Source: a bacterium
Lineage (GTDB): Bacteria > Patescibacteriota > Patescibacteriia > UBA9934 > GWF2-40-263
Direction: 5' to 3'
NCBI GenBank assembly: GCA_021789915.1
Contig: JAJYIV010000002.1
Coordinates: 613 to 64,612 of the forward strand
Length of the DNA stretch: 64,000 nucleotides
The notes under the pieces are model-generated. The model made no database searches and was not told the origin of the DNA. It saw only the letters and a program-made list of their open reading frames with translations. Shown piece by piece: positions 5,585 to 41,595 of this stretch; the first letter of the stretch is position 1; the number at the start of each line of letters is the position of its first letter. The translations under genes were made by a program, and so were the position numbers.

Positions 5585-6261
5585 AGTCGGTATTTTCCCT
5601 CTTCGACGTCCGAGACGATCCGGCCGCCGTCGAGGGCGATCACGCGCTTTTTGAGGCCGTTCACGACTTCGCGATTATGCGTCACCAGCACGACCGTGGT
5701 GCCGAACTCGTTGATCTTGCGCAGCAGCTCCATGATTTCGCGCGTGTTGATGGTGTCCAGGTTGCCGGTGGGCTCGTCGGCCAGCAGGATTTTGGGGCGG
5801 TGGACGAGCGCGCGGGCGATCGCGATGCGCTGCTGTTCGCCGCCGGACAGCTGCCTGGGGAAACGGTCGGCCTTGTCCTGAAGGTTCACGATGCGCAGGA
5901 CCTGCGGGACGATGTCGCGCACGCGCTCCAGCGGCAATCCGGAGACTTCCAGCGCGAACGCGATGTTCTCCGCCACCGTTTTGCGCTGGAGGAGCTTGAA
6001 ATCCTGGAACACGACGCCGATCTGCCGGCGCAGGAGCGGAACGTCGCGCTCGCGGATGCGGGTGATGTCCCAGCCGCCGACCACCACCTGACCTTCCGTC
6101 GGATGCTCCTCCGCGAACATGAGCTTGGCGAGCGTCGTCTTGCCCGTGCCGCTTTGGCCCACGATGGAAACGAATTCCCCGGCCTTGATATGCAACGAGA
6201 CGTCGCGCACGGCCGCGACGTTCGGATGGTAGATTTTGGTGACGTTCTTGAAGCGGATCAT
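5581..6261 (-). CDS. ftsE: Cell division ATP-binding protein FtsE
   Basis: Start set at MIRFKNVTKIY. Walker A GQSGTGKTT and LSGGEQQR signature. The longer ORF to 6348 would overlap tRNA-Gly. Confidence 0.9.
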   Translation of the reverse strand: MIRFKNVTKIYHPNVAAVRDVSLHIKAGEFVSIVGQSGTGKTTLAKLMFAEEHPTEGQVVVGGWDITRIRERDVPLLRRQIGVVFQDFKLLQRKTVAENIAFALEVSGLPLERVRDIVPQVLRIVNLQDKADRFPRQLSGGEQQRIAIARALVHRPKILLADEPTGNLDTINTREIMELLRKINEFGTTVVLVTHNREVVNGLKKRVIALDGGRIVSDVEEGKYRL

Positions 6262-6311
6262 GCCGTCTTGCGATTGGTCGGAACGTCGGCTATTATAGCG
6301 CACGCCATCGC

Positions 6312-6385
6312 GCAGGTATAGTTTAGTGGCAAAACGACTGCTTCCCAAGCAGTAGTCGCGGGTCCGATTCCCGCTACCTGCTCCA
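6312..6385 (+). tRNA. tRNA-Gly (anticodon CCC)
   Basis: Acceptor GCAGGTA/TACCTGC, anticodon loop TTCCCAA, discriminator U73, CCA encoded. Confidence 0.85.
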
Positions 6386-6413
6386 AAAATCCCCGACTTG
6401 GTCGGGGATTTTT
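6386..6413 (+). terminator. Terminator after tRNA-Gly
   Basis: AAAAATCCCCGAC-TTG-GTCGGGGATTTTT. Confidence 0.8.
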
Positions 6414-6510
6414 GCTTGTAAACGGGATGGGGGGCGCAAAAAACGCCGCCTGTTCCAAGAGGGGAACGGGCGGCAGCGTCAGTCGGCGGAGGGCGGCGGC
6501 CGCAGAAACG

Positions 6511-7686
6511 CTATGGTTCGCCGCGCGGGCGCAACAGCCACAGGACGGCGGCGACAGCCGCGAGCAGCGCGCCGCAAACCGTCCATGTCAATCGGATCGT
6601 GTCCGGCCCGTCGAGAAAGCGGCGGTCGGCAAGCCACAAGACAAGCGGCACGACGGTGAAACCGGCTTTCGCGGCGAATGAATGAAGCGATCCGGCGGTG
6701 GCGCGGTAGGCGCTTTCCACGCGACGGTGGATGAAGCGGTCCGTAAGCGGTTGGAAGGATCCGCGCGGCAGCTCGTGCAGCGCGAGCAGCGCCAGGAAGC
6801 CGACGCGGCCGCCGGAGAGCGGCAAGGCCAGCATTGCCAGCCCTGCGACGCCCATCGATACCGCCGTCGCGGCCGCGTCGTGCATGCCGGCGTCGGCCAA
6901 CCGCGGCATCAACAGGCCGCCGATGGAAGAGGCGAGGCACATTCCCGCAAAGACCAGGCCCAGGCGCGCGCGGCCGAACAGCCGTTCGGCATACGGCGCC
7001 CAAAAATAATTGATCCCGGCCACGAGGCCAAACGCGAACAGGCAGGCGGCGATCCATCGCAGCGCGCGCTGCGCGCGCAGGGCGCCGATCGCGCGTGCGA
7101 ACGCCTCCGTGCATGGCAGGCGATGCGCCGGATCGCCACGTCCGCGCATGCGCGTGCGCACGAACGCGACGAGTACGGGCGCGCACAAGAGTTCGGGAAC
7201 CCAGATCGCCCGTAGATGCCATGCGCCCAGCCAGCCGCCAAACGCGCCACCGGCCATCATGGCCAGGCCGCGCGCCGCGGACGCGCGGCCAAGAACGCCG
7301 CCGATATTTTCTCCATGGCCTTCGGCATGCAGCGTATCTACGAGCCATGCCTGCAGCGCGCCCGACTCGAACGCGAGACCGGCGCCTAGGACGATCTCCG
7401 CCGTCAGCGCCGAACCGAGCCCGCGCGCCAGCAGGTACGCGAGCGCGCCGGCGAACCGGATGACAGCACCCACGGCTAGCGTTCGCGCGCGCCCGAAACG
7501 ATCCGCCGCGAGACTCGTCGGAACGTCCATGGCAATCACGGCCGCACTGAAGAAACCGTTGATGAGCGCCACCTGGCCCAAGGTCAGGCCGATGGATCGC
7601 AGGAACGGCACGTAGTCCGCCATGGACATGGCAATGCCGAACGTGCTCAAGAATGCGAACGTCACGTACGTGCGCGCAGCGCGCAT
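6511..7686 (-). CDS. MFS transporter
   Basis: 391 aa with ~12 hydrophobic segments. DRFGRAR loop motif between TM2 and TM3. Confidence 0.7.
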   Translation of the reverse strand: MRAARTYVTFAFLSTFGIAMSMADYVPFLRSIGLTLGQVALINGFFSAAVIAMDVPTSLAADRFGRARTLAVGAVIRFAGALAYLLARGLGSALTAEIVLGAGLAFESGALQAWLVDTLHAEGHGENIGGVLGRASAARGLAMMAGGAFGGWLGAWHLRAIWVPELLCAPVLVAFVRTRMRGRGDPAHRLPCTEAFARAIGALRAQRALRWIAACLFAFGLVAGINYFWAPYAERLFGRARLGLVFAGMCLASSIGGLLMPRLADAGMHDAAATAVSMGVAGLAMLALPLSGGRVGFLALLALHELPRGSFQPLTDRFIHRRVESAYRATAGSLHSFAAKAGFTVVPLVLWLADRRFLDGPDTIRLTWTVCGALLAAVAAVLWLLRPRGEP

Positions 7687-7883
7687 GGTTCCTCCTTGGA
7701 AGGATCAAAAACGGCCGGGGGGTTTCCCGGCCGTTCGGGTCCTGATGCGCGTCACGCGCCCATCAGACCCCTGCCGCCGGGAAACGAAAAACACATAGAC
7801 GGGCGTCAAGAAGAATGGTCAGATCTCTCAAACGGCCCTTGTCCGACCGGACGTTTCTTGATATGGTGCCCGCGCTCAAGACG

Positions 7884-7905
7884 GGTCAGTATATACATAC
7901 TGACC
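7884..7905. promoter_or_regulatory. 22-bp palindrome with an AT-rich core upstream of tRNA-Lys
   Basis: GGTCAGTATATACATACTGACC, 60 nt upstream of the tRNA. It may be an operator or part of a promoter. Confidence 0.25.
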
Positions 7906-7965
7906 TCTCGTCGTTCGGGCACGACTAATGCGTTTAGAACGCATTGGTCGCACCGCTCACTCCTT

Positions 7966-8040
7966 GGGTCAGTAGCTCAGTGGTAGAGCCAGGGCCTTTT
8001 AAGCCCGCGGTCGTGGGTTCGATCCCCACCTGACCCACCA
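7966..8040 (+). tRNA. tRNA-Lys (anticodon TTT)
   Basis: GGGTCAG..CTGACCC acceptor, D-arm GCTCAGTGGTAGAGC, anticodon loop CTTTTAA, T-loop TTCGATC, CCA encoded. Confidence 0.92.
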
Positions 8041-8041
8041 G

Positions 8042-8165
8042 AAAACCGCCTAAAGCAGCGATCTATCGGCTCAGGCCTCGCGTGCTCGCTCACCGTACAT
8101 ATCAGTACGGCTCGCTGCGCCCGCTTCGGCCTTCACCGATATCTCATCTGCTTTAGGCGGTTTTT
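8042..8165. repeat. ~124-nt imperfect long hairpin directly 3' of tRNA-Lys
   Basis: Outer arms AAAACCGCCTAAAGCAG / CTGCTTTAGGCGGTTTT are perfect. Inner arms are imperfect around GTACATATCAGTAC. Confidence 0.8.
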
Positions 8166-8402
8166 AAGATGGGATCGAACCGGAAGCCGGAGAATGGTCG
8201 AGTCTTGCAACGGTCTCAGTGCAGAAGCTTGACGGAATCCTCATTCCTGGTATCTTTCGTCCTTGCTCTTTTTATGTTTTCAACGTTTGATTGAGCCATG
8301 AGGCAAGCGTTTTTCCGATCTTTTCGAAGGCCGGCAAGCCGCTTGTCTCATGGAAATGAGTCAGCCGCACCGGGAGTCCCCCGACTGCGAAACAAAAGGA
8401 GA

Positions 8403-9296
8403 ATGACGATGCCGGCCACGCCGATCACGTCACCTCAGAAGCGCAAGATCGCAGCCCTCGTCTCCGAAGCGACCGAGAAGGTCATCGAGGAGATGGGACT
8501 CGACAAGGAAGGCGCACAGTGGGTCATAGAGATGAACGGCGACGAATTCGCCGCCGCCGTGCGCGAGAAGGTTCGCGAGCTGCTCACCCGTCTCTCCGTC
8601 TCCGACCAGTTCGCCGACGAGGAAGTCGCCTCGAACTACGGCTATCTCTCCGGCTACAAGCAGCCGAAAGGGATCACCGAGCAGACCAACCGCCTGCGTG
8701 AGCTGATCCGAGGCGTCGGGTTCGCGGACGAGAAGTTGGCGGAGCTCCCTCTGCCGAAGCTCGCGGAAGGCTTCTTCGCCATCCCGAAGTGGGAGACGGT
8801 CGCCCCGACCTACGGCGAGGCCGTCCAGAAGGTGCAGGATCTCCTGAGGGCCCAGCGCGGCGGCAAGTTCTACAGCTACCGCGAAGGCCAGCTCGGACCC
8901 CTGCACCTCCGGCAGAGCGCCCGCTCCGTCGCGTTCTGGAAGCGGCTCGCCGACGCGCAGAAGGGCTACGACATCCTCGTCGTTCCCGCTCAGTTCGGCA
9001 AGCGCGACGGGATCTCTCGTTCCGTCCGCCGCTCTCGTGTGGTCTTCACGGCGCAGGAGTTCGGTCTCGGGGCGTTCGCTTCCGGGATCATGCTCCTCAC
9101 CCACCCGGAGCGTCTGCAGCACTACGACGATCTCTGGATCGACTGTGCCGGAGACGAGTACGCTCCGGGGGCTGACGACCAATTCGTCAACGCGCCGTAC
9201 TTCTACTTCGACGTTGACGGGCTCGAGTTCGACGCGTTCGGTGTCGGCAGCTACTACGACTTCTGCGGGTCTGCGTCGGCCTTCTCCCCGGAGTAG
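8403..9296 (+). CDS. Hypothetical protein
   Basis: Start MTMPAT, chosen for the AAGGAG RBS at 8394-8399. Balanced composition. No family recognised. Confidence 0.6.
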   Translation: MTMPATPITSPQKRKIAALVSEATEKVIEEMGLDKEGAQWVIEMNGDEFAAAVREKVRELLTRLSVSDQFADEEVASNYGYLSGYKQPKGITEQTNRLRELIRGVGFADEKLAELPLPKLAEGFFAIPKWETVAPTYGEAVQKVQDLLRAQRGGKFYSYREGQLGPLHLRQSARSVAFWKRLADAQKGYDILVVPAQFGKRDGISRSVRRSRVVFTAQEFGLGAFASGIMLLTHPERLQHYDDLWIDCAGDEYAPGADDQFVNAPYFYFDVDGLEFDAFGVGSYYDFCGSASAFSPE

Positions 9297-9362
9297 AGTC
9301 CTCGTCCCTCAGTTCCTTTGTTACTCTTTCCGTTCTTTCCGTCTTGTCCCTTTTCGGGACAC

Positions 9363-9401
9363 TACCGGCGTTCGTTTCAACAAACGCCGGTATTTCTTTT
9401 T
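9363..9401 (+). terminator. Rho-independent terminator
   Basis: TACCGGCGTT..AACGCCGGTA stem followed by TTTCTTTTT. Confidence 0.75.
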
Positions 9402-9439
9402 CTTCGGCGGGGATCGGAGAGTGTTGTAAATCTCCTTTT

Positions 9440-9553
9440 CTCGTCATTGCGAGGAGCTGGTCCCAGTCGTGGCGACGAAGCAATCCTGCAGTTTCCTTCG
9501 AGAACGGAAGGATTGCTTCGCTCCGGCCTCCGGCTTTCGCTCGCAATGACGAG
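9440..9553. repeat. Nested palindromic element (GTCATTGCGAG type)
   Basis: Perfect 14-bp terminal inverted repeat CTCGTCATTGCGAG / CTCGCAATGACGAG, plus an inner inverted repeat CGAAGCAATCC / GGATTGCTTCG. Confidence 0.85.
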
Positions 9554-9659
9554 TTTTGCAACGGTCTCTGATCGAACGCTTGACGCGGCGCTTGACGCTC
9601 CCTTCCCTCCCGTTCAACGTCCTTTATAATGAAGGGATACTCAATCATCCTTTCATCCT

Positions 9660-9797
9660 ATGAACGATTTCGGGACGTGCGAAAACTGCGGTGCGGAAGA
9701 TCAGGAGCTTGACGAGAACGGCCTGTGTCCGGACTGCAGCGCGCAGGGACACACGGAGCGCGGCCCCGACATGGGCGACGAAGAAGAGAGCGCCTAG
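9660..9797 (+). CDS. Candidate 45-aa zinc-ribbon microprotein (below the ORF-track cutoff)
   Basis: MNDFGTCENCGAEDQELDENGLCPDCSAQGHTERGPDMGDEEESA. CxxC-14-CxxC pattern, high GC3, TATAAT at 9625-9630. No SD sequence. Confidence 0.4.
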   Translation: MNDFGTCENCGAEDQELDENGLCPDCSAQGHTERGPDMGDEEESA

Positions 9798-10885
9798 CGT
9801 CCGGCCAGGGCGCGCACGCGTTCCGCCAGGCGTTCCGCGGCGCCTCCCGGGAACAGCGCCCCGATCCGTTCGGACAGGCGGCGCTGTTTTTCTTTGTCTC
9901 CGACAAGCGCCGCGACCTGCGCGACGAGCGCGGTCCCGCCGCGCGCCTGCTCCACGGCCACCGCCGCCCCGCGGCGCAGGACGGCGCGCGCGTTTTCCTC
10001 CTGCGGCGAGCGCGGCAGCGGCACGAGCACGCACGGCTTGCGCAGCGCCGAGAGCTCCGCAAGCGTGCCCATGCCGGCGCGCGCGACCACGACGTCGGCA
10101 GCCGCCAAGGCGTCGGCCAAATCGCGGCCAAGGAGCAGCTCCACGGCGGCGTAGCCGGGCCCGGCCGCGCGCAGGCCCTCGGTGACTTTCCCGCGGCCCG
10201 TCACGTGGATGACGTCGGCGACGGCGCGCATGCGCTCCATCCCCGCCTCAAACGCCCGGTTGATCCACGCCGATCCGCCCCCGCCGCCCAGCACGAGCGC
10301 CACCGGACGCGCGCCGGAAAAGCCGTAGCGCGCGCGGGCGGCCGACGCATCGCCGCGCAGGATCGACGGCCGCACGGGCTGGCCGACGACGAGCGTTTTG
10401 TCCTTCGGGAACGCCGCGGCCGTCTCGGGCCACGCGACGGTGATGAGCGACGCGGCGCCCGCACACAGGCGGTTGGACAAGACCGGCCGCACGTCGGGCT
10501 GATGGATCCACGACGGAATCTTGAACCGGCGAGCCAGCAGGACGAACGGCACGCCGGTGAAGCCGCCGGCCGAGGCGACGACGTCCGGCCGTTCGCGGCG
10601 GAGCAGGCGCCACGCGGCGAACAGCGCCGCGGCGGCTTTGAACGGGAACACCAGCCACTCGGCGGACGCGTAGCGCGTCAGGCGCGCCACGGGCACGGCG
10701 TGGAACGGAATGCCCGCCTGCTCCACCAGCGCGCGCTCCGGCCCGCGCGCCGTTCCCGCCCACGCGAACGACGCGTCCGGATCGGACGCGCCATGCCTGT
10801 CGGCAGGCAGGCGCAACGCTTCGGCGACGGCGAGCAGCGGCGTGACGGGACCAAGCGTTCCTCCGCCGGCAAAGAGGATTTTCAT
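9794..10885 (-). CDS. murG: UDP-N-acetylglucosamine--N-acetylmuramyl-(pentapeptide) pyrophosphoryl-undecaprenol GlcNAc transferase
   Basis: Start MKILFAGGGTLGPV, the typical MurG N-terminus. dcw context. Confidence 0.9.
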   Translation of the reverse strand: MKILFAGGGTLGPVTPLLAVAEALRLPADRHGASDPDASFAWAGTARGPERALVEQAGIPFHAVPVARLTRYASAEWLVFPFKAAAALFAAWRLLRRERPDVVASAGGFTGVPFVLLARRFKIPSWIHQPDVRPVLSNRLCAGAASLITVAWPETAAAFPKDKTLVVGQPVRPSILRGDASAARARYGFSGARPVALVLGGGGGSAWINRAFEAGMERMRAVADVIHVTGRGKVTEGLRAAGPGYAAVELLLGRDLADALAAADVVVARAGMGTLAELSALRKPCVLVPLPRSPQEENARAVLRRGAAVAVEQARGGTALVAQVAALVGDKEKQRRLSERIGALFPGGAAERLAERVRALAGR

Positions 10886-14885: not shown

Positions 14886-16211
14886 TTAGAGCCTGTTCAT
14901 CCGGCAGACGAAGCTCTTCAAATACGCCGCCTCGGGGAAATACACGGACAACGGATGATCCGGGCTCTGACGCACGACCTCGAGCACCTGCAGGTCGACG
15001 CCCGCCTGCACCGACGCGCGGCGCAGCAGGAAGACCAAGTCCTCCTCCGGCAGGAAATGCGAACAGCTGGACGTGATGAAGATGCCGCCGTCCTTCACGA
15101 GCTTGAGCGCGGCGCGGTTCAGGAAATGATAGGCCTTCTTCCCTTCCTCGGCGTCCTTCATCGACTTGATGAGCGCCGGCGGATCCATAACGACGACGTC
15201 GAAAGCGCCGGCAACCCCCTCAGACTCCCCCTTGGCAAGGGGGAGATGGTGCGGGTTGGCGAGCCACTGGAAGACGTCCGCTTTCTCCGTCGCGCAGACC
15301 TCGTCGGACAAGCCGGCCGCCGCCGCCTGCGCGCGCAGCGATGCCAGCGCTTCCTCGGATCCGTCGACGTTCAGGACGGATTTCGCCCCGCCGGCGAAAG
15401 CGGCGAAGGACGTGGCACCGGTGTATGAAAAGAGATTCAGAACCGTCTTCCCTTGCGCGAGCGCGGCGACCCGGTCGCGCAGGTCCTTCTGGTCGAGGAA
15501 GAATCCCGTCTTTTGTCCGTGAAGAGGATCGGCGACGCAACGCCGGCCGTGCTCGAGAAATTCGACTTGACCCAATGCGCGTCCTCCCCTTTCCAAGGGG
15601 AGGCTGCCTGCTGGCCGCTTTTCAGCAGGCGGAGGTGTTGCCGGCGTGTGAATTCTGACGACCGCCTCCAGGTTCTCCTCGCGCCGGCTCGGCATGTCGC
15701 TGCGCTCGACGATCGCGCGCGGCTTGAACGTCTCTTCCAGCGCGGCGACGACGTCGTCACGCAGCGCGTCGAGACCGGCGGTTGCGATCTGGCATACGAG
15801 CACGTCGCCGTAGCGGTCGACGACCAAGCCCGGAATCCCGTCGGACTCGCCGAACACGCAGCGGTAGCCGGTCGTGAACTTCTCCCCCTTTTCAAGGGGG
15901 AGACTCTGCTCCAGAGGGGGTCGAGGGCCGTATCCCATCAAAACCCGTTTCTGGTGCGCATCCGCGATCTTGGCCGCCAGCCAGGCGCGGTCGATGACGG
16001 CCTCTTTGAACGCAAACACGCGCACGGCGATGGACGAGCTGGCGGAGTACGTCCCCGTGCCGATGATGCGCCCCTGGCGGTCCGCGACGTGCACGAGGGC
16101 GCCATGCTCGGGTTTCTTCTGACCGTCGGCCAGCGCGCGCGAAAAAATCCACGGATGGCGGAAGCCGACATTGGCCTCCTTCCCTTCTTTGAGCTTCAGG
16201 ACGGGGTACAT
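14886..16211 (-). CDS. Class I SAM-dependent rRNA methyltransferase (RlmI/RlmK-like, PUA plus MTase)
   Basis: Start MYPVLKLKEGKE..FRHPWIF. VLNLFSYTG and VVMDPP motifs. The long 706-aa ORF prefix is R-rich shadow sequence. Confidence 0.75.
   Translation of the reverse strand: MYPVLKLKEGKEANVGFRHPWIFSRALADGQKKPEHGALVHVADRQGRIIGTGTYSASSSIAVRVFAFKEAVIDRAWLAAKIADAHQKRVLMGYGPRPPLEQSLPLEKGEKFTTGYRCVFGESDGIPGLVVDRYGDVLVCQIATAGLDALRDDVVAALEETFKPRAIVERSDMPSRREENLEAVVRIHTPATPPPAEKRPAGSLPLERGGRALGQVEFLEHGRRCVADPLHGQKTGFFLDQKDLRDRVAALAQGKTVLNLFSYTGATSFAAFAGGAKSVLNVDGSEEALASLRAQAAAAGLSDEVCATEKADVFQWLANPHHLPLAKGESEGVAGAFDVVVMDPPALIKSMKDAEEGKKAYHFLNRAALKLVKDGGIFITSSCSHFLPEEDLVFLLRRASVQAGVDLQVLEVVRQSPDHPLSVYFPEAAYLKSFVCRMNRL
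15225..15245. repeat. GC-rich hairpin repeat, in-frame within a CDS
   Basis: CTCCCCCTTGGCAAGGGGGAG, translated as PLAKGE. Confidence 0.85.
15583..15636. repeat. GC-rich double-hairpin repeat, in-frame within a CDS
   Basis: CCTCCCCTTTCCAAGGGGAGGCTGCCTGCTGGCCGCTTTTCAGCAGGCGGAGG. About 50/55 identical to 63803-63857. Confidence 0.9.
15881..15925. repeat. GC-rich hairpin repeat, in-frame within a CDS
   Basis: TCTCCCCCTTTTCAAGGGGGAGA.., translated as SLPLEKGEKF. Confidence 0.85.
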
Positions 16212-16333
16212 AGGAAATTCGTGAAGATAGATGCGCGAGAAGAAAGCGAGTATGACAGAACGCCGCCGTCTTGTCGAGGAGAAGGCCGCGCCAAGAAAAA
16301 GCCCTCGTCCAGCGCTGGACGAGGGAGAGTCTT

Positions 16334-18100
16334 TCAAGTGGCGTTCCCGATGTTGTGCCGGCAGTGATCCGGCAGCATCGGCTGCAGCTTCCTGCGGAAG
16401 GCGGACGGCACGCGCTGCCACAGCAGGCGCGCCGCTTCGGGCTCGGCGGCGAGTCCCCAGAAGAGATCCTTCCATCCGTCGAGGCCGACGCCCTTCACGA
16501 AATCGTCCGGCTGGTCGCGGGTAAGGAACGCGAGCAGCCACGCCAGGAAGCGGAAGTCCCCGCCCCACCGGACGCCGAATCCCGGACCGACGGCCTGTAC
16601 AAGTCGGTGCGGCGTCAGAGATCCGTCGAACGCGCCGGACGCGAACAGCGCGAGGATGCCGTCGCGCAGCGGTTGTTCGCCGGCTTCCCACGCGTGCATC
16701 CAGAACCCGAGATCGAGGCGCTTGTTGTCGGGCCGCAGAATTTCCGGACCGAGATGACGCACCGCCACGTTGAGGCACGCGTGCACATCCGACGGCGGCA
16801 GATCGCTCGCGATGACCGCCGCCCACGGATACTCGTCTCGCATGCGCCGCTTCACGTCCGACGGCCATCGTTCGGCCCCGCCGAGGTATTGGCGCAGCAG
16901 CTTGGGCGGCAGTCGCAGCAGCACGTTCGCGTCCGCCGTCGCGACGACCAGGTCGGCGATCGTGCGCGACGCGCCGACGCCGTGGACGAAGATCCAGGCC
17001 GACCACGTGCGCAGCACTTCCTCTTCGCCCACGTCGATGTCGTCGCTCGCGAGAAACCGCGCCTTCACGGCGTCCACGAACGCGAGGAACGACTCCCTGG
17101 CGAACGCGACGAACGCGTCTTCGTCGCGCGAATCGTCCAACGGAACCTTGTCAAAGATGCGCTCCGGTTCCATGCACACGGTCGACAGCCGCAGCCATCG
17201 GCGCAGCGCGTCGACGGCCGCCGGCAATCGGCGCGCCACGGCCTGCGGCTCGAAGAACGTCCGCTCGACCAGATCCTTGAGCGCCAGCGGCTCGACCTGG
17301 AAGTTCAAATCCATGAAGCGGTCGAGGGACGTGCCGAGCCCGCCCGACACCGGGAGGAACAACGCATCCGGAAGCGTGAGCGCCCGGACGAAGTAGCTGC
17401 GGACGAACAGGTCCAGCAAGCCGCCGTGCGGGCACGGCGCGTCGACAGCCGGACGCCGGAACAGCCGGCGGACGTACACGTTGATGATGTCGTCGCCGCT
17501 GAACCAGCCTCGGATCGGGAACTGCTCCGCCGCCCGGCGCAGCAGCCGTTCGTTCTCGTCGCACGAAGCGACAGCGGCCAGGTACGCGGCGCGATCGGAC
17601 GGCGCGGACGCGCCGCGCGCGAGCGAGGCCAGCGCCTGCTCGCGCCCGACGCTCAGAAGCCCGAAGGCCGAGCCGCTGAGTACGACGACGTTCCGCCGCG
17701 ACAGGGACGCGGCGCGCACGGCGAGCTCCGAAAGGAGCGCGGCGCCGACACCGTACATCTCGAACAGCGACGCGGCACGCAGCATCACGACCGCGGCGTC
17801 CGCGTCGCCCTCCGCCGCTTCTTCGAGGCCGAGCGACAGGCACGCGCCGACGCGTTCCATGGCGGCGCGCCGGCCGTCCGGCTGCAGGAGATCGAGCTTC
17901 CGCTCGGCCGCCGCCTGAACAAGGCAGGCCTGCACGGCGTCCGCATCCGCGTCGCGCGCGGCGAGCTCCGCGTCCTGCCGGGCCCGCGCGTACGCGGCGC
18001 GGAAGAACGCGGAGGCGGTGCCCGGCTCTCGGCATTCGGCGCTCGGCGCGCGGAACGACCGCGCGAGCGCGCCTCCCGCTTGAACAATCGCCGTGTTCAC
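16334..18100 (-). CDS. Hypothetical protein (588 aa)
   Basis: GTG start at 18100 forms a GTGA overlap with the upstream stop. Balanced W/F/Y/D-containing composition. No family recognised. Confidence 0.6.
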   Translation of the reverse strand: MNTAIVQAGGALARSFRAPSAECREPGTASAFFRAAYARARQDAELAARDADADAVQACLVQAAAERKLDLLQPDGRRAAMERVGACLSLGLEEAAEGDADAAVVMLRAASLFEMYGVGAALLSELAVRAASLSRRNVVVLSGSAFGLLSVGREQALASLARGASAPSDRAAYLAAVASCDENERLLRRAAEQFPIRGWFSGDDIINVYVRRLFRRPAVDAPCPHGGLLDLFVRSYFVRALTLPDALFLPVSGGLGTSLDRFMDLNFQVEPLALKDLVERTFFEPQAVARRLPAAVDALRRWLRLSTVCMEPERIFDKVPLDDSRDEDAFVAFARESFLAFVDAVKARFLASDDIDVGEEEVLRTWSAWIFVHGVGASRTIADLVVATADANVLLRLPPKLLRQYLGGAERWPSDVKRRMRDEYPWAAVIASDLPPSDVHACLNVAVRHLGPEILRPDNKRLDLGFWMHAWEAGEQPLRDGILALFASGAFDGSLTPHRLVQAVGPGFGVRWGGDFRFLAWLLAFLTRDQPDDFVKGVGLDGWKDLFWGLAAEPEAARLLWQRVPSAFRRKLQPMLPDHCRHNIGNAT

Positions 18101-18939
18101 GGCCGCTCCTTCTCCGCGACGACCGCCTGCGCACGCAGCCGCTCGATGAGCGACTTCGCACTGACGGCGCTCGTGCGCGTCTTCGCTTCCTCCTGCGTCC
18201 GGCGCAGCAGCGCGGCGGCGCCCTCGGTCACCTCGACCGTCGCCGGGTGCGCGTCGAGCCAGTCGAACCGCTCTTCGAGCACGTGCAACGCGAGCGTCTG
18301 CCGATCGCCGGTGTTCATCCAGTAGACCACGGCGGAAGCGGCATTGAACGCCGCGGCGGCGATCTGCGTCACCCGCTCTTCCGCGTCTTCCGCGTCCAGC
18401 AAGGCGAGCGCCCAGTACTCGGCAGGCATCGCCTCGAGCGCCGCGCGCTTCCACGCGGCGTCGTTGCCGCTGTCCAGGACGGCGACGAGACGCTCGTACG
18501 CCTCGCTCGCGCGCACCTGGCACGGAAAGTTGCGGACGCCCCACAGCGTCACGGACGTCCCGACTGGATTGAAGTGGAGCGGGACGAGCCGGTTCCCCAG
18601 CGTCTTCACGAGCCCGCGCGCCTTGAGCGCCGCGTACTCCGCCGCCGACAGCTCGAAGTACCCGCCGTCCGCCAGCTCGTCGCCAAACCGGCCGAAGACC
18701 GGATCGAACACGTGCGCATCGCGCCGCAACACCTCTGGCACCTGCCCGGTCGCAAGCGCGGCGATGACGGCGCTGCGCGCGCTGCGCGTCGGCAGCGTCA
18801 GGAGCGCGGCGGCGACCTGCACGGCCGGCAGCGACGCGACGGCCGCCAAGCCTTGCGGCGTGTCGAGCCGAACGATCGAAACCGGCACGCCCGCCGGACG
18901 CGCGAGAGCTTCCGTCTGGTTTTGAAGGGTCTCACCCAT
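18097..18939 (-). CDS. Hypothetical protein (280 aa)
   Basis: Start MGETLQNQ, with a GGAGGA RBS 6 nt upstream. No family recognised. Confidence 0.6.
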   Translation of the reverse strand: MGETLQNQTEALARPAGVPVSIVRLDTPQGLAAVASLPAVQVAAALLTLPTRSARSAVIAALATGQVPEVLRRDAHVFDPVFGRFGDELADGGYFELSAAEYAALKARGLVKTLGNRLVPLHFNPVGTSVTLWGVRNFPCQVRASEAYERLVAVLDSGNDAAWKRAALEAMPAEYWALALLDAEDAEERVTQIAAAAFNAASAVVYWMNTGDRQTLALHVLEERFDWLDAHPATVEVTEGAAALLRRTQEEAKTRTSAVSAKSLIERLRAQAVVAEKERP

Positions 18940-19007
18940 CTGTCTTCCTCCGAGGAAGCCTGGGCACCCGGGAATCGGATGCGCAGGCGGCCGAAGGAAG
19001 ACGGCGG

Positions 19008-19036
19008 ACCATAACAATAAAACCGCCGCGTGTCAA
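19008..19036 (-). promoter_or_regulatory. Sigma70-like promoter
   Basis: On the minus strand: TTGACA-17 nt-TATGGT, about 70 nt upstream of the 18939 start. Confidence 0.45.
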
Positions 19037-19051
19037 TCAAAAGCCGTCCGC

Positions 19052-19477
19052 TTACGACGCCAGCCCGAGCTTTGCCTCGACGACCTGCAAACGCCCCTCG
19101 AAGCGATCCATCCGCAAGGTCGGCGCGACCAGCTCCTGCTCGATCGTCAGCTGCAGCCGCGCCACCTGGTCGCTCACGGCAAGGACTTCCTGACGAACGT
19201 CTTGAAGATCCTCCTTTGTCGCGAAACGGTCGAAATCGTCTTTCGTGGCAAAGTTCTGCAGATCGTCTTTCGTGGCAAAGTTCTGCAGATCGTCTTTCGT
19301 GGCAAAGTTCTGCAGATCGTCTTTCGTGGCAAAACGGTCGAAATCGGCCTTCATTGCCACATTCTCCTTTACGAAACCGATGAATTCGTGCATTTCCGAC
19401 GTTAAACCTTCGACCTTCCGTTCAAGGCCATCGAACTTCTGCGCCAGCTGATTTGTCGTCAGGTGTTCCTCACTCAT
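19052..19477 (-). CDS. Coiled-coil protein with tandem FATKDDLQN repeats (DUF1640-like pattern)
   Basis: 141 aa. Five 9-aa repeats flanked by heptad-like helices. Confidence 0.7.
   Translation of the reverse strand: MSEEHLTTNQLAQKFDGLERKVEGLTSEMHEFIGFVKENVAMKADFDRFATKDDLQNFATKDDLQNFATKDDLQNFATKDDFDRFATKEDLQDVRQEVLAVSDQVARLQLTIEQELVAPTLRMDRFEGRLQVVEAKLGLAS
19208..19345. repeat. 27-bp tandem repeat (3 perfect and 2 degenerate units) inside a CDS
   Basis: ATCGTCTTTCGTGGCAAAGTTCTGCAG x3 at 19235-19315, with diverged flanking units. Confidence 0.9.
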
Positions 19478-19489
19478 ATATCGCTTCGA

Positions 19490-19518
19490 AGTATACGTCC
19501 TGAATTAAATCGCTTCAA
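19490..19518 (-). promoter_or_regulatory. Sigma70-like promoter giving a near-leaderless mRNA
   Basis: On the minus strand: TTGAAG-17 nt-TATACT. The -10 ends 12 nt before the ATG at 19477. Confidence 0.5.
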
Positions 19519-19521
19519 ACG

Positions 19522-19559
19522 AAAAGATCCCGCGTCTGTTTCAGACAGGGGATCTTTTG
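19522..19559 (-). terminator. Terminator after the methyltransferase gene
   Basis: AAAAGATCCCGCGTCTG..CAGACAGGGGATCTTTT. Confidence 0.65.
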
Positions 19560-19595
19560 TCTCTGTGTGCATTTAAGCGGAAAAAACGGGTTTCG

Positions 19596-20252
19596 TCAAT
19601 CGTCGTGTGTGGATATCTTCCGCTCCTTCAACAAGATAAGCGCCCGTCCAGACAACGGATTCTTAAGAATGCCTTCGATCTTCCACGCCGCCTCCTTGAA
19701 ATGAATGCCTTCCCCTTCCAATTGCTTCTTCCATCGAGTGAGCGGCACCGCATGCAGTCCGCCGTCTAAAGCGGCGGCAGGCGCATCGATTTCTTCCAGG
19801 TCCATCACGTGAATGGCGATGCCGCCTTCCCGTAACGCATTCCATGAATTCATCAGGACGTCCCACTGCTTTTCCGTCTCGATGAACTTCAAGAAGACGT
19901 GCGCGTACGTGATGTCGTACGGCCCGCCGGGGAAAGGTTTTGTCGCGTCATGTCGAATGACGCCAGGCGCCCCAGCAAGATGCTCGATAGCAATGTCCGA
20001 GGTCGTGAGATCGACGTCTCGACCCAACAATGACGAAAAGATGCGACGATGGTGATCGATGAAGCGCCTGTCCCCGCATCCGACGACGAAGATGCGAACG
20101 TGTTCATGCGCAGGATGACAAGGAACAACCGAAAAGATAGTTTTCAATTCCCGTTCCTTGATGTCTGCTCGGCGTTGAATTTCCGCATCGGACAGCGCCG
20201 CATACTTTTTGTGATAGTCGGAGAGGGCCATATGAATTTTTCTATTGCGCAT
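19596..20252 (-). CDS. Class I SAM-dependent methyltransferase
   Basis: VVGCGDRR motif I. Visibly more AT-rich than the neighbouring genes. Alternative start at 20231. Confidence 0.6.
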   Translation of the reverse strand: MRNRKIHMALSDYHKKYAALSDAEIQRRADIKERELKTIFSVVPCHPAHEHVRIFVVGCGDRRFIDHHRRIFSSLLGRDVDLTTSDIAIEHLAGAPGVIRHDATKPFPGGPYDITYAHVFLKFIETEKQWDVLMNSWNALREGGIAIHVMDLEEIDAPAAALDGGLHAVPLTRWKKQLEGEGIHFKEAAWKIEGILKNPLSGRALILLKERKISTHDD

Positions 20253-24469: not shown

Positions 24470-24545
24470 TGGTGGACCTGATGGGAGTCGAACCCACATC
24501 TTATGGTGCTAACTCAGGCGAGGTTACCGTTTCCTCCACAGGCCC
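24470..24545 (-). ncRNA. tRNA-like RNA (tRNA-Ala-like, degenerate anticodon stem)
   Basis: GGGCCTG-TG-GAGG-AAACGGTAA-CCTC..GTGGG-TTCGACT-CCCAT-CAGGTCC-ACCA. G3:U70 is present. The anticodon arm CCTGA/GTTAGCA/CCATA does not pair. Confidence 0.5.
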
Positions 24546-40470: not shown

Positions 40471-41595
40471 TCAGGAGACGAGGGGACGCGCGATCGCGGC
40501 GGCGAGCGCTTCCATCCCCTGCCCCGTCGCCGCGGACACCGGCGCCACGGCCGCGAAGGCCCCCGCGTCGAACGCCGGGCCAAGGCGTCGCCGCCAATCG
40601 GCGCCGGCGGCGTCGATCTTGTTCACCGCGAGCACGCGCGGCGTTTCCGCGGCGCCCAAGCGCTTCAGGATCTCGTCCACCACGCGCAGATGGTCCGCCG
40701 CATGCGCGTCGGCGGCATCCACGACCTGCACGAGCACGTCGGCGTCCGCCGCCTCCGAGAGCGTCGATGCGAACGCGTTCAAGAGCTCGGGCGGCAGATT
40801 TTGGATGAAGCCGATCGTGTCGGAGACGAGCACCTGGCGCGGCGGCTCGTTCTCTTTCCTTGCGACGTACAGCGAGCCAACGCGCGTGTCGAGCGTGGCG
40901 AAGAGCTCGTCGGCCGCATACTCGCGCCGGCGCGTGAGCCGGTTCAGCAGCGACGTCTTGCCGGCGTTCGTGTAGCCGACGAGCGCCGCCGTGGGCAGGC
41001 CCTGCCGCCGACGCCGTTCCTGGCGCGCGCGACGCATCGTCTGATACCGCGCGAGCTTCTCCCCGACCGCTTCGGCGCGCTCGCGCAGGTGCCGGCGCAT
41101 GATCTCCGTGTTCGTCTCGCCCTTGCCGCGCGTACCGGTGCCGCCGCCCTGGCGCGACAATTCCAGGCCCATGCCGTAGATGCGCGGGCCCATGTGCCGG
41201 ATGCCGGCCAACTCGATCTCCAGCCGCGCCTCCGTCGTGCGCGCGTGCTTGGCGAAGATCTTCAAGATGAGATCGAGGCGGTCCCACACCTGGAGGCCGG
41301 CCGGGCGCAGCGCTTCCGAGAGAAGATAGACTTGCCGCGGCTTGAGCCGGTCGTTGATGACCACGAGCGCCGCCCCGAGCCGCTTCCCTTCCTCGGCCAG
41401 CTGCTCGATCTTTCCCGTACCGAGGAATGTCGCCGGATGCGGCGCCGCGCGGCGCTGATGCGTCTTCACGACGACGATGCCGCCGTACGTGCGCACGAGT
41501 TCTTCCAATTCCTGCAGCCGATCCAAACTCTCCGCCTTCGTGAGCCGCGGCGGGATCAGATCGACGAGAATGGTTTTGAGGAGACGGTCGGCCAT
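40471..41595 (-). CDS. hflX: GTPase HflX
   Basis: HflX N-domain followed by G1 GYTNAGKTSL and G3 DTIGF. Confidence 0.9.
   Translation of the reverse strand: MADRLLKTILVDLIPPRLTKAESLDRLQELEELVRTYGGIVVVKTHQRRAAPHPATFLGTGKIEQLAEEGKRLGAALVVINDRLKPRQVYLLSEALRPAGLQVWDRLDLILKIFAKHARTTEARLEIELAGIRHMGPRIYGMGLELSRQGGGTGTRGKGETNTEIMRRHLRERAEAVGEKLARYQTMRRARQERRRRQGLPTAALVGYTNAGKTSLLNRLTRRREYAADELFATLDTRVGSLYVARKENEPPRQVLVSDTIGFIQNLPPELLNAFASTLSEAADADVLVQVVDAADAHAADHLRVVDEILKRLGAAETPRVLAVNKIDAAGADWRRRLGPAFDAGAFAAVAPVSAATGQGMEALAAAIARPLVS

Follow-up and report, generated by a model that had tools for sequence, protein, structure and literature searches.

The region between pyrG and an rlmI-like gene in a relative of Candidatus Uhrbacteria appears to hold two unrelated things. 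One is a self-contained operon of two genes, B and C, whose products would form a heteromeric, non-enzymatic scaffold of helical repeats. The other is a separate accessory unit, gene A; its product is a coiled-coil protein, small and acidic, in which a 9-residue repeat can expand. We give this explanation, taken as a whole, a probability of about 0.55. The window, that is, the whole stretch of 64,000 nucleotides that was analysed, comes from contig JAJYIV010000002.1, and all the features described below lie on its minus strand. A previous, sequence-only reading had placed the open reading frames, promoters, ribosome-binding site and gene overlap of this region, and every one of them is present where it had put them.

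Anatomy of the B-C operon

B and C constitute an autonomous two-gene operon, with its own promoter, a leader hairpin, a GTGA overlap and an intrinsic terminator. The promoter, TTGACA-17-TATGGT (19008..19036), has a TG preceding the -10 hexamer. It was found by a consensus scan, which detected 4 sites over 8 kb where shuffled sequences yielded 0.7 +/- 1.0. Of 10 lineages examined, most have an equivalent TTGACA-type -35 element with a 17-nt spacer upstream of B (a scripted score accepted 7 of the 10, and the remainder were read by eye). Gene B (18097..18939) encodes a soluble protein of 280 aa, starting at an ATG at 18939, with the ribosome-binding site GGAGGA at 18951-18946, 6 nt before the ATG. 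Gene C (16334..18100) encodes a soluble, mostly helical protein of 588 aa; its GTG start overlaps the TGA of B as GTGA (18097-18100), with AAGGAG lying 5 nt upstream. Both the GGAGGA and the stop/start overlap had been described earlier just as they are found, and the starts of B and C are backed by alignment with their orthologues. Beginning 8 nt past the C stop codon, an intrinsic terminator (16302..16325) has a 10-bp stem with 7 GC pairs, followed by CTTTTTCTTG. A B-C transcript would be made from the operon's own sigma-70-type promoter and would end at this terminator, and C would be produced by translational coupling, through the GTGA overlap and the internal AAGGAG. No 19-residue window in A, B or C has a Kyte-Doolittle mean above 2.0, in agreement with the earlier view that the three proteins lack transmembrane segments.

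The leader of B is structured. Its 61 nt (18942..19002) fold into a single long hairpin, in which the 5' arm, GUCUUCCUUCGG, pairs with CCGAGGAAGAC, the latter being the Shine-Dalgarno region of B, which is therefore buried in the stem. The predicted fold has an energy of -44.3 kcal/mol (z = -5.7), and the orthologous leader folds alike (z = -9.05). The consensus fold of these two sequences has 21 pairs, 3 of them with compensatory changes and 0 broken. A search of positions 16000-20000 against Rfam, on both strands and with E up to 1, gave no match. Since a long hairpin with the ribosome-binding site hidden in its stem is found only in the source organism and one close relative, it is not a general property of the operon; in the source lineage, it would be expected to damp the translation of B.

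Pairing and distribution of B and C

In 12 of the 12 lineages read, which range from 44 to 66% GC, the gene immediately preceding C, and on its strand, is a homologue of B. The two genes overlap by 4 bp in 4 of these 12 and are separated by 2-21 nt in 4 more. The tight coupling of the 280-aa and 588-aa genes, proposed earlier from the source sequence, is supported well beyond it. B-C is confined to a few lineages of Patescibacteria (CPR), where it is always inherited as a pair. Relatives of C are rare: among 1.84 billion representative proteins, no more than 27 were detected by a profile search. Word-indexed searches found 2 homologues of C and 1 of B, and a 14-sequence profile again found 2. 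The C profile had no match in the genome collection and, in metagenomes, matched only an already known contig; C-type proteins had no match in plasmids by tblastn, and none of 80 Patescibacteria pyrG loci contains B-C.

The proteins encoded upstream of C form a family of their own, with lengths of 254-285 aa. The nearest B orthologue is 43% identical (E 5e-56), and six B sequences align end to end. The distant partners were linked to B by hhalign (93% and 97%), by hmmsearch (3.6e-46, 2e-16 and 2.8e-8) and by a transitive link (5e-54). What lies upstream of the other B-C pairs varies: tRNAs with a type IIG restriction enzyme, ComM, or a Cys/His-rich 91-aa protein, and further an ABC ATPase, a zinc-ribbon protein or ClpB. 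Since Patescibacteria genomes are tiny, and yet this 2.6-kb pair has been kept intact across such different base compositions, B-C is probably useful to its hosts.

Relationship of C to DUF6178

It had been thought that none of the three proteins belongs to a recognised family. This does not hold for C, which matches the Pfam family DUF6178 (PF19676) with 30.5 bits (E 1.8e-7), above the gathering cut-off of 25.5 bits. Residues 75-162 of C correspond to positions 304-391 of the 561 positions of the model. DUF6178 is matched by all 14 full-length family members (C and 13 relatives; best E 6e-11), but never along most of the model, the widest span in any relative being positions 251-455. For the B family, neither Pfam nor NCBIfam nor any other library searched contains a model. 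Our search of the literature found no paper on DUF6178, PF19676 or IPR046176, and nothing useful on INT_rpt. Paralogy of B and C was considered separately and rejected (hhalign probability 0.4%).

The N-terminal part of the model that is missing from C raises the question of a split gene, in which B would correspond to the ~255 N-terminal DUF6178 positions lacking in C. This reading is compatible with the main explanation. In the C-type proteins scanned, the best DUF6178 match starts at model position ~251-310, within the first 10-100 residues of the protein; the partners, with their 254-285 aa, are close to the missing length, and none of the 27 C relatives carries a B-sized N-terminal extension. 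However, the eight B homologues scanned (the six aligned sequences and the partners from loci L013 and L014) have no DUF6178 match at E up to 10, and in artificial B+C fusions the DUF6178 match was not extended into the B part. Moreover, about 400 residues follow the shared core in C, against ~140 in the model, which argues that the architectures differ beyond a simple split. We consider it unlikely that the pair arose in this way.

Structure and proposed role of the two proteins

AlphaFold predicted B and C with confidence as single chains, and both models consist mostly of helices. That of B starts with an array of helical hairpins, continues with a small alpha/beta section and ends in a helical bundle. 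Among solved and viral structures, no relative of either model was found above noise, and a sequence search of solved structures gave nothing below E 0.27. The conserved columns are mainly aromatic and aliphatic, with a few Arg, Asp and Glu; on reading them, no nucleotide-binding or metal-binding motif was recognised. Failure to detect a catalytic motif does not prove that enzymatic activity is absent. From gene order, it may fairly be inferred that B and C form a stoichiometric complex, as the sequence-only reading had suggested. As the operon would yield two soluble, mostly helical, repeat-like proteins, we favour a heteromeric scaffold or adaptor that would be non-enzymatic.

MgtE_N (PF03448) was matched weakly, below its cut-off of 25.9 bits, by one B homologue at its N-terminus and by one C homologue at its C-terminus (17.2 and 13.8 bits), over 50-146 residues. 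A bolder model would be a Patescibacteria-specific alpha-solenoid machine of two proteins, in which MgtE-N/FliG-like hairpins at the N-terminus of B and the C-terminus of C might stack head-to-tail into rings or filaments, with the RNA leader gating production in the source lineage. Such an assembly could be a novel scaffold, either cytoskeletal or close to the membrane, or else the sensor core of a conflict system that has yet to be described. We regard this model as improbable.

Setting of the locus: cargo or housekeeping

The neighbours of the region are a Methyltransf_11 protein and PyrG on one side and a PUA + Methyltrans_SAM (RlmI-like) protein on the other, as had been read from the sequence. 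In the four Uhrbacteria genomes nearest to it, RlmI comes right after PyrG, at a distance of 156-465 bp, whereas here the two are separated by 4 kb that contain the methyltransferase, A, B and C. A stretch missing from the nearest relatives would fit an accessory role no less well than that of a core scaffold. Instead of a housekeeping scaffold, B-C could be cargo of a variable genome island, for instance a hitherto undescribed system of anti-phage defence or conflict. The 4-kb block between PyrG and RlmI and the very patchy distribution of the pair speak in this direction, and so do some neighbours elsewhere: a type IIG restriction enzyme and an AAA_15 ATPase in one lineage (L001), an SMC/AAA_23 protein and an ABC/Zeta-toxin-like ATPase in another (L009), and a PIF1-WYL helicase in a third (L011). 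However, when the proteins were compared with PADLOC-DB v2, the check that the sequence-only reading had proposed, no defence-system model matched credibly: A and C had no match at all, and the one match of B, to Cas8a (E 0.005, 14 bits), was not repeated in 7 other B homologues. Nuclease, NTPase, TIR/SIR2 and membrane effector domains were not found, nor was a viral structural relative. Neither flanking repeats around the 4-kb block nor mobility genes were found. The codon usage of B-C is native in the source genome: the GC3 of B and C (0.88-0.90) resembles that of pyrG and mraY. In addition, the gene order TGT, a 125-aa gene, ClpB, B, C, MraY is shared by two loci (L013 and L097), and this conserved order makes vertical inheritance among housekeeping genes look likely. 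Island cargo seems to us distinctly unlikely, rather less so than the bolder ring or filament model but more so than the split gene.

The same two loci, where ClpB is directly upstream and MraY directly downstream of the pair, together with the presence of MraY 2.7 kb downstream of C in the window, could be taken to mean that B-C is a lineage-specific housekeeping factor for protein quality control or cell-envelope synthesis. Yet no more than two or three lineages out of 12 show such an association, the neighbours elsewhere being unrelated, and the pair is missing from most Patescibacteria, including the nearest relatives, so that a housekeeping function of this kind appears more doubtful still than either the cargo or the ring-forming machine.

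Gene A, probably a separate unit

Gene A (19052..19477) encodes a 141-aa acidic protein (pI 4.6), with heptad-patterned ends and central 9-residue units (FATKDDLQN and similar). Its transcription unit is bounded upstream by a terminator-like hairpin that ends the methyltransferase gene (19522..19558; an inverted repeat with 17-nt arms, 88% complementary, followed by TTTTCGTTT), which a simple terminator scan had missed. The consensus scan placed a sigma-70-type promoter for A, TTGAAG-17-TATACT, at 19490..19518. Since the ATG comes just 12 nt after the -10 hexamer, and no Shine-Dalgarno sequence is found, the earlier description of the A mRNA as near-leaderless is reasonable and can be kept. 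At the other end, a weak terminator-like hairpin overlaps the A stop codon (19043..19058; a 5-bp stem plus TTTTGATT).

Within the gene, an in-frame 27-bp unit is repeated in 3.7 copies that are 100% identical (19235..19333), and this perfect repeat is nested in a degenerate register of five 27-nt units at 19196-19365. A second assembly of the source organism has exactly two 27-bp units fewer in ~700 bp of otherwise identical sequence. This gives some support to the proposal that the repeat number varies, assembly collapse being an alternative. No family was found above threshold for A in the libraries searched; the match to the CCDC90-like / DUF1640 family (PF07798) has 14.6 bits (E 0.03), below the cut-off of 33.5 bits. 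The repeat region matches PHROG families of unknown function (5e-9 and 5e-8). By tblastn, A had no match in viral contigs and one marginal match in phage genomes (E 9e-4). Each of A, B and C occurs only once in the window.

A, B and C had been proposed to form one functional unit, and they are indeed adjacent on one strand, with an A-B terminator whose 5-bp stem is so weak that read-through into B is possible; but A is served by a promoter of its own, the composition of the gene (~54% GC, like the adjacent methyltransferase; GC 0.545, GC3 0.70) is unlike the 71% GC of B and C, the 11 B-C pairs of other lineages all lack an A-like gene upstream, and the only weakly A-like protein found elsewhere, in another Patescibacteria genome (L082), has neither B nor C nearby, so that a three-gene module is very improbable and, of the expected co-occurrence outside the source genome, what stands is that of B with C, A being with the pair nowhere else.

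Significance

For anyone planning expression or interaction experiments, it matters that the module comprises two genes rather than the three first proposed. The data presented above also provide the first firm contextual clue for the DUF6178 superfamily, in the form of a divergent branch with an obligatory, previously unmodelled partner. The family of this partner, B, is now defined, together with a candidate translational control element. B-C is one more uncharacterised gene pair and not a new kind of system, and it opens no long-standing question.

Comparison with known systems

For the proposed scaffold, alpha-solenoids of the HEAT, TOG and CID types are among the closest known systems. 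ARM-like hairpin motifs of the MgtE_N/FliG kind mediate domain stacking in FliG rings. Unlike MgtE, B and C have neither CBS nor transmembrane domains, and, unlike the context of FliG, the loci read contain no flagellar gene.

Hairpins at the 5' end of mRNAs that bury a ribosome-binding site are known as RNA thermometers (ROSE, fourU) and as stabiliser stem-loops (the Bacillus subtilis aprE leader). Like these, the leader of B is a 5'-terminal stem with the Shine-Dalgarno sequence in its 3' arm, and compensatory changes preserve the stem in the orthologue. Its predicted stability of -44 kcal/mol far exceeds that of known thermometers. The hairpin is seen in two sequences only, and the leader in the window matches no Rfam family.

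Protein A resembles the coiled-coil proteins with an 'ATK-x-DL' motif (CCDC90-like/DUF1640) in its heptad-patterned helices and its repeated [FL]ATK[DE]DL units, and differs from them by a recent perfect triplication of 27 bp, specific to the source organism.

Finally, C and DUF6178 have in common a helical core of ~90-200 residues, located near the N-terminus of C. C has no counterpart of the N-terminal 250 positions of the model, and it possesses a C-terminal region of its own, of ~400 residues. What sets this branch of DUF6178 apart is that its members are always paired with a separate protein of the B type.

Gene organization and signals

Genes A (19052-19477, 141 aa), B (18097-18939, 280 aa) and C (16334-18100, 588 aa) all lie on the minus strand, with the sizes and positions that an earlier, sequence-only reading had given them. 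Both promoters named in that reading, TTGAAG-17-TATACT (19518-19490, minus) and TTGACA-17-TATGGT (19036-19008, minus), were recovered by a consensus scan, which returned 4 sites across an 8-kb stretch, against 0.7 ± 1.0 in shuffles. The ribosome-binding site and the coupling that it described are likewise present: GGAGGA precedes the ATG of B at a distance of 6 nt, and the GTG start of C overlaps the TGA stop of B as GTGA, with AAGGAG 5 nt upstream. Near-leaderless is a reasonable description of gene A, its ATG lying 12 nt past the -10 hexamer with no Shine-Dalgarno sequence. Two minus-strand elements are additions to that reading: a good intrinsic terminator directly after C (16325-16302) and a hairpin and T-run marking the end of the methyltransferase gene upstream (19558-19522). 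The flanking genes encode a Methyltransf_11 protein, PyrG, ribosomal protein L9, a PUA/Methyltrans_SAM (RlmI-like) protein, L27, NifU and MraY. Elsewhere in the window, ARAGORN made two unusual calls, a tRNA-Ala with anticodon AGC (24470-24545) and a 94-nt tRNA-Ala(GGC) (40523-40616) inside long ORFs on both strands.

B and C as an obligate pair

We surveyed contigs of 12 lineages encoding a C-type protein, with GC contents of 44 to 66%. Directly upstream of C, on the same strand, all 12 carry a gene of 254-285 aa without a Pfam match. The two genes overlap by 4 bp in the window and in three other loci (L001, L009, L011), are 2-21 nt apart in four lineages and 69-200 nt apart in the four most distant ones. 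B is 43% identical to its nearest orthologue, in L001 (E 5e-56), and six homologues align from end to end. The more distant partners are linked to B by hhalign (L013 and L014, 93% and 97% probability), by hmmsearch (L095, L014 and L013, at 3.6e-46, 2e-16 and 2.8e-8) and, for L098, transitively through the L013 partner (5e-54). B and C are thus strictly co-inherited, B being the obligatory partner of C and belonging to no family model. In L095 the distant C homologue (6001-10698, P0016) is a 1565-aa protein whose C-like part is followed by seven Pfam INT_rpt (PF14882) repeats, and a 275-aa B homologue is kept 2 nt upstream.

The three-gene module originally proposed shrinks to B and C, since no A-like gene was found beside any other B-C pair; co-occurrence holds for B with C and fails for A. 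The small ORFs upstream of the pair in L007 and L011 encode Cys/His-rich and zinc-ribbon proteins unrelated to A. Most of the 10 lineages inspected have, upstream of B, a -35 hexamer of the TTGACA type and a 17-nt spacer (a scripted score accepted 7, the others being judged by eye), and from these sequences B-C therefore looks like a transcription unit of its own.

The 61-nt leader of B (18942-19002, minus), which begins at about the predicted transcript start, forms a single, very stable hairpin of -44.3 kcal/mol (z = -5.7) whose 5' arm pairs with the Shine-Dalgarno region. The orthologous leader of L001 (8062-8129) adopts the same fold (z = -9.05), and the two-sequence consensus has 21 pairs, with 3 compensatory changes, 4 one-sided compatible changes and none broken. 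The leader has no match in Rfam, and the long hairpin is missing from more distant lineages. As a candidate element for translational control or mRNA stabilization, the hairpin would be expected to reduce or gate the translation of B and then, via coupling, of C, and it might also stabilize the mRNA.

Gene A, a separate unit

Base composition sets A apart. The GC content of A is 0.545 and that of the adjacent Methyltransf_11 gene 0.533, with GC3 of 0.70 and 0.63 (19052-20252), against 0.71 and 0.88-0.90 in B and C, which resemble pyrG and mraY; the genome's other genes have GC3 of 0.81-0.90, in a genome of 65% GC. For this reason A is probably a separate, younger acquisition, and together with the Methyltransf_11 gene it looks to have arrived more recently than B and C. 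The only A-like match elsewhere, a weak one in a locus with neither B nor C nearby, is a 118-aa protein (L082, 8786-9157, minus) with the FATK-x-DL motif and a similar N-terminus; it is encoded about 1.2 kb from pyrG, on the opposite strand, in another Patescibacteria genome. Small proteins with this motif may be common in the group.

The A protein is acidic (pI 4.6), with regular 3-4 hydrophobic spacing at both ends. Its central part consists of six 9-residue units, of which three have the same DNA sequence; this repeat region is matched by two PHROG families that have no assigned function (5e-9 and 5e-8). Tandem Repeats Finder reports 3.7 copies, 100% identical, of a 27-bp unit (19235-19333), inside a degenerate five-unit register. 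Another assembly of this organism (L004, 1678-2049) is 100% identical over about 700 bp save for exactly two fewer units, giving an A of 123 aa, and a third contig (L005, 1-213) ends within the repeat. Either the copy number truly varies or the repeat was collapsed during assembly.

Genomic setting

PyrG shares 72-74% identity with its counterparts in Candidatus Uhrbacteria genomes, the better matches all being Patescibacteria; the window has a GC content of about 65%. The four nearest Uhrbacteria genomes share the order L9, PyrG, RlmI, followed in three of them by L27, NifU, a 131-aa ORF and MraY. Their PyrG-RlmI distance is 156-465 bp; in the window it is 4.0 kb, filled by the methyltransferase gene, A, B and C. 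No flanking repeats or mobility genes were found bounding this block, and neither B nor C occurs at any of 80 Patescibacteria pyrG loci. In the same four genomes (L015, L016, L018, L019) the PyrG-RlmI and RlmI-L27 gaps differ in the small or unknown genes that they hold; in L015 (7602-8067 and 9281-12221) these include ORFs of 120 aa and 457 aa. Such gaps, bounded by conserved housekeeping genes, look like slots of variable content.

In two distant lineages (L013, 637-9203; L097, 1-8791) the B and C homologues have the same surroundings, with TGT, a 125-aa gene and ClpB, in that order, before the pair and MraY after it; in the window MraY lies 2.7 kb downstream of C. Otherwise the B-C neighbourhoods have nothing in common. 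In L001 (3224-7748) a 1054-aa type IIG restriction-modification enzyme and an AAA_15/AAA_21 ATPase lie on the opposite strand, upstream of two tRNA genes and B-C.

Protein families and possible function

The statement that none of the three proteins matches a recognized family stands for A and B, which have no above-threshold match in Pfam, NCBIfam or PADLOC, and falls for C, which scores 30.5 bits with DUF6178 (PF19676; cut-off 25.5 bits). Word-indexed homologue searches yielded next to nothing; when 1.84 billion cluster representatives were searched exhaustively with a profile, 27 proteins were found, 14 of them full-length relatives (579-604 aa, E below 1e-50) and the remainder more distant (607-682 aa, plus three longer). 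All 14 match DUF6178. The match on C covers residues 75-162, model positions 304-391 of 561, and in all relatives scanned it starts in the vicinity of the protein's own N-terminus, at about model position 251-310 onward. C is therefore, on these alignments, a divergent branch with only the DUF6178 core in common, its C-terminal ~400 residues being its own.

That B stands in for the 255 N-terminal DUF6178 positions absent from C is attractive because its length agrees with the missing stretch, but sequence comparison gave this no support. Comparison of B with C rules them out as paralogues.

The C model (14-sequence alignment, mean pLDDT 84.6, pTM 0.60) is made up almost entirely of helices, apart from a few short strand pairs. 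That of B (8 sequences, mean pLDDT 76.8, pTM 0.71) has N-terminal helical hairpins, a small alpha/beta middle and a C-terminal helical bundle. Neither has a structural relative among viral structures or a sequence relative among solved ones, and no catalytic or nucleotide-binding motif was recognized when their conserved columns were read by eye. A defence system is a circumstantial reading, in which patchy distribution and restriction-enzyme or ATPase neighbours at some loci stand against the lack of a PADLOC match, a Cas8a match in only one of eight B homologues, native codon usage and mostly housekeeping neighbours. The predicted fold class, helical-repeat in both proteins, suggests a scaffold: from an operon with its own promoter, leader, two translationally coupled genes and terminator, B and C would, at roughly even odds, assemble into a heteromeric scaffold or adaptor without enzymatic activity. 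Set against known families, such an assembly would join a divergent protein with the core of DUF6178, a known but uncharacterized family on which the literature searched yielded nothing, to a partner that no existing model describes.
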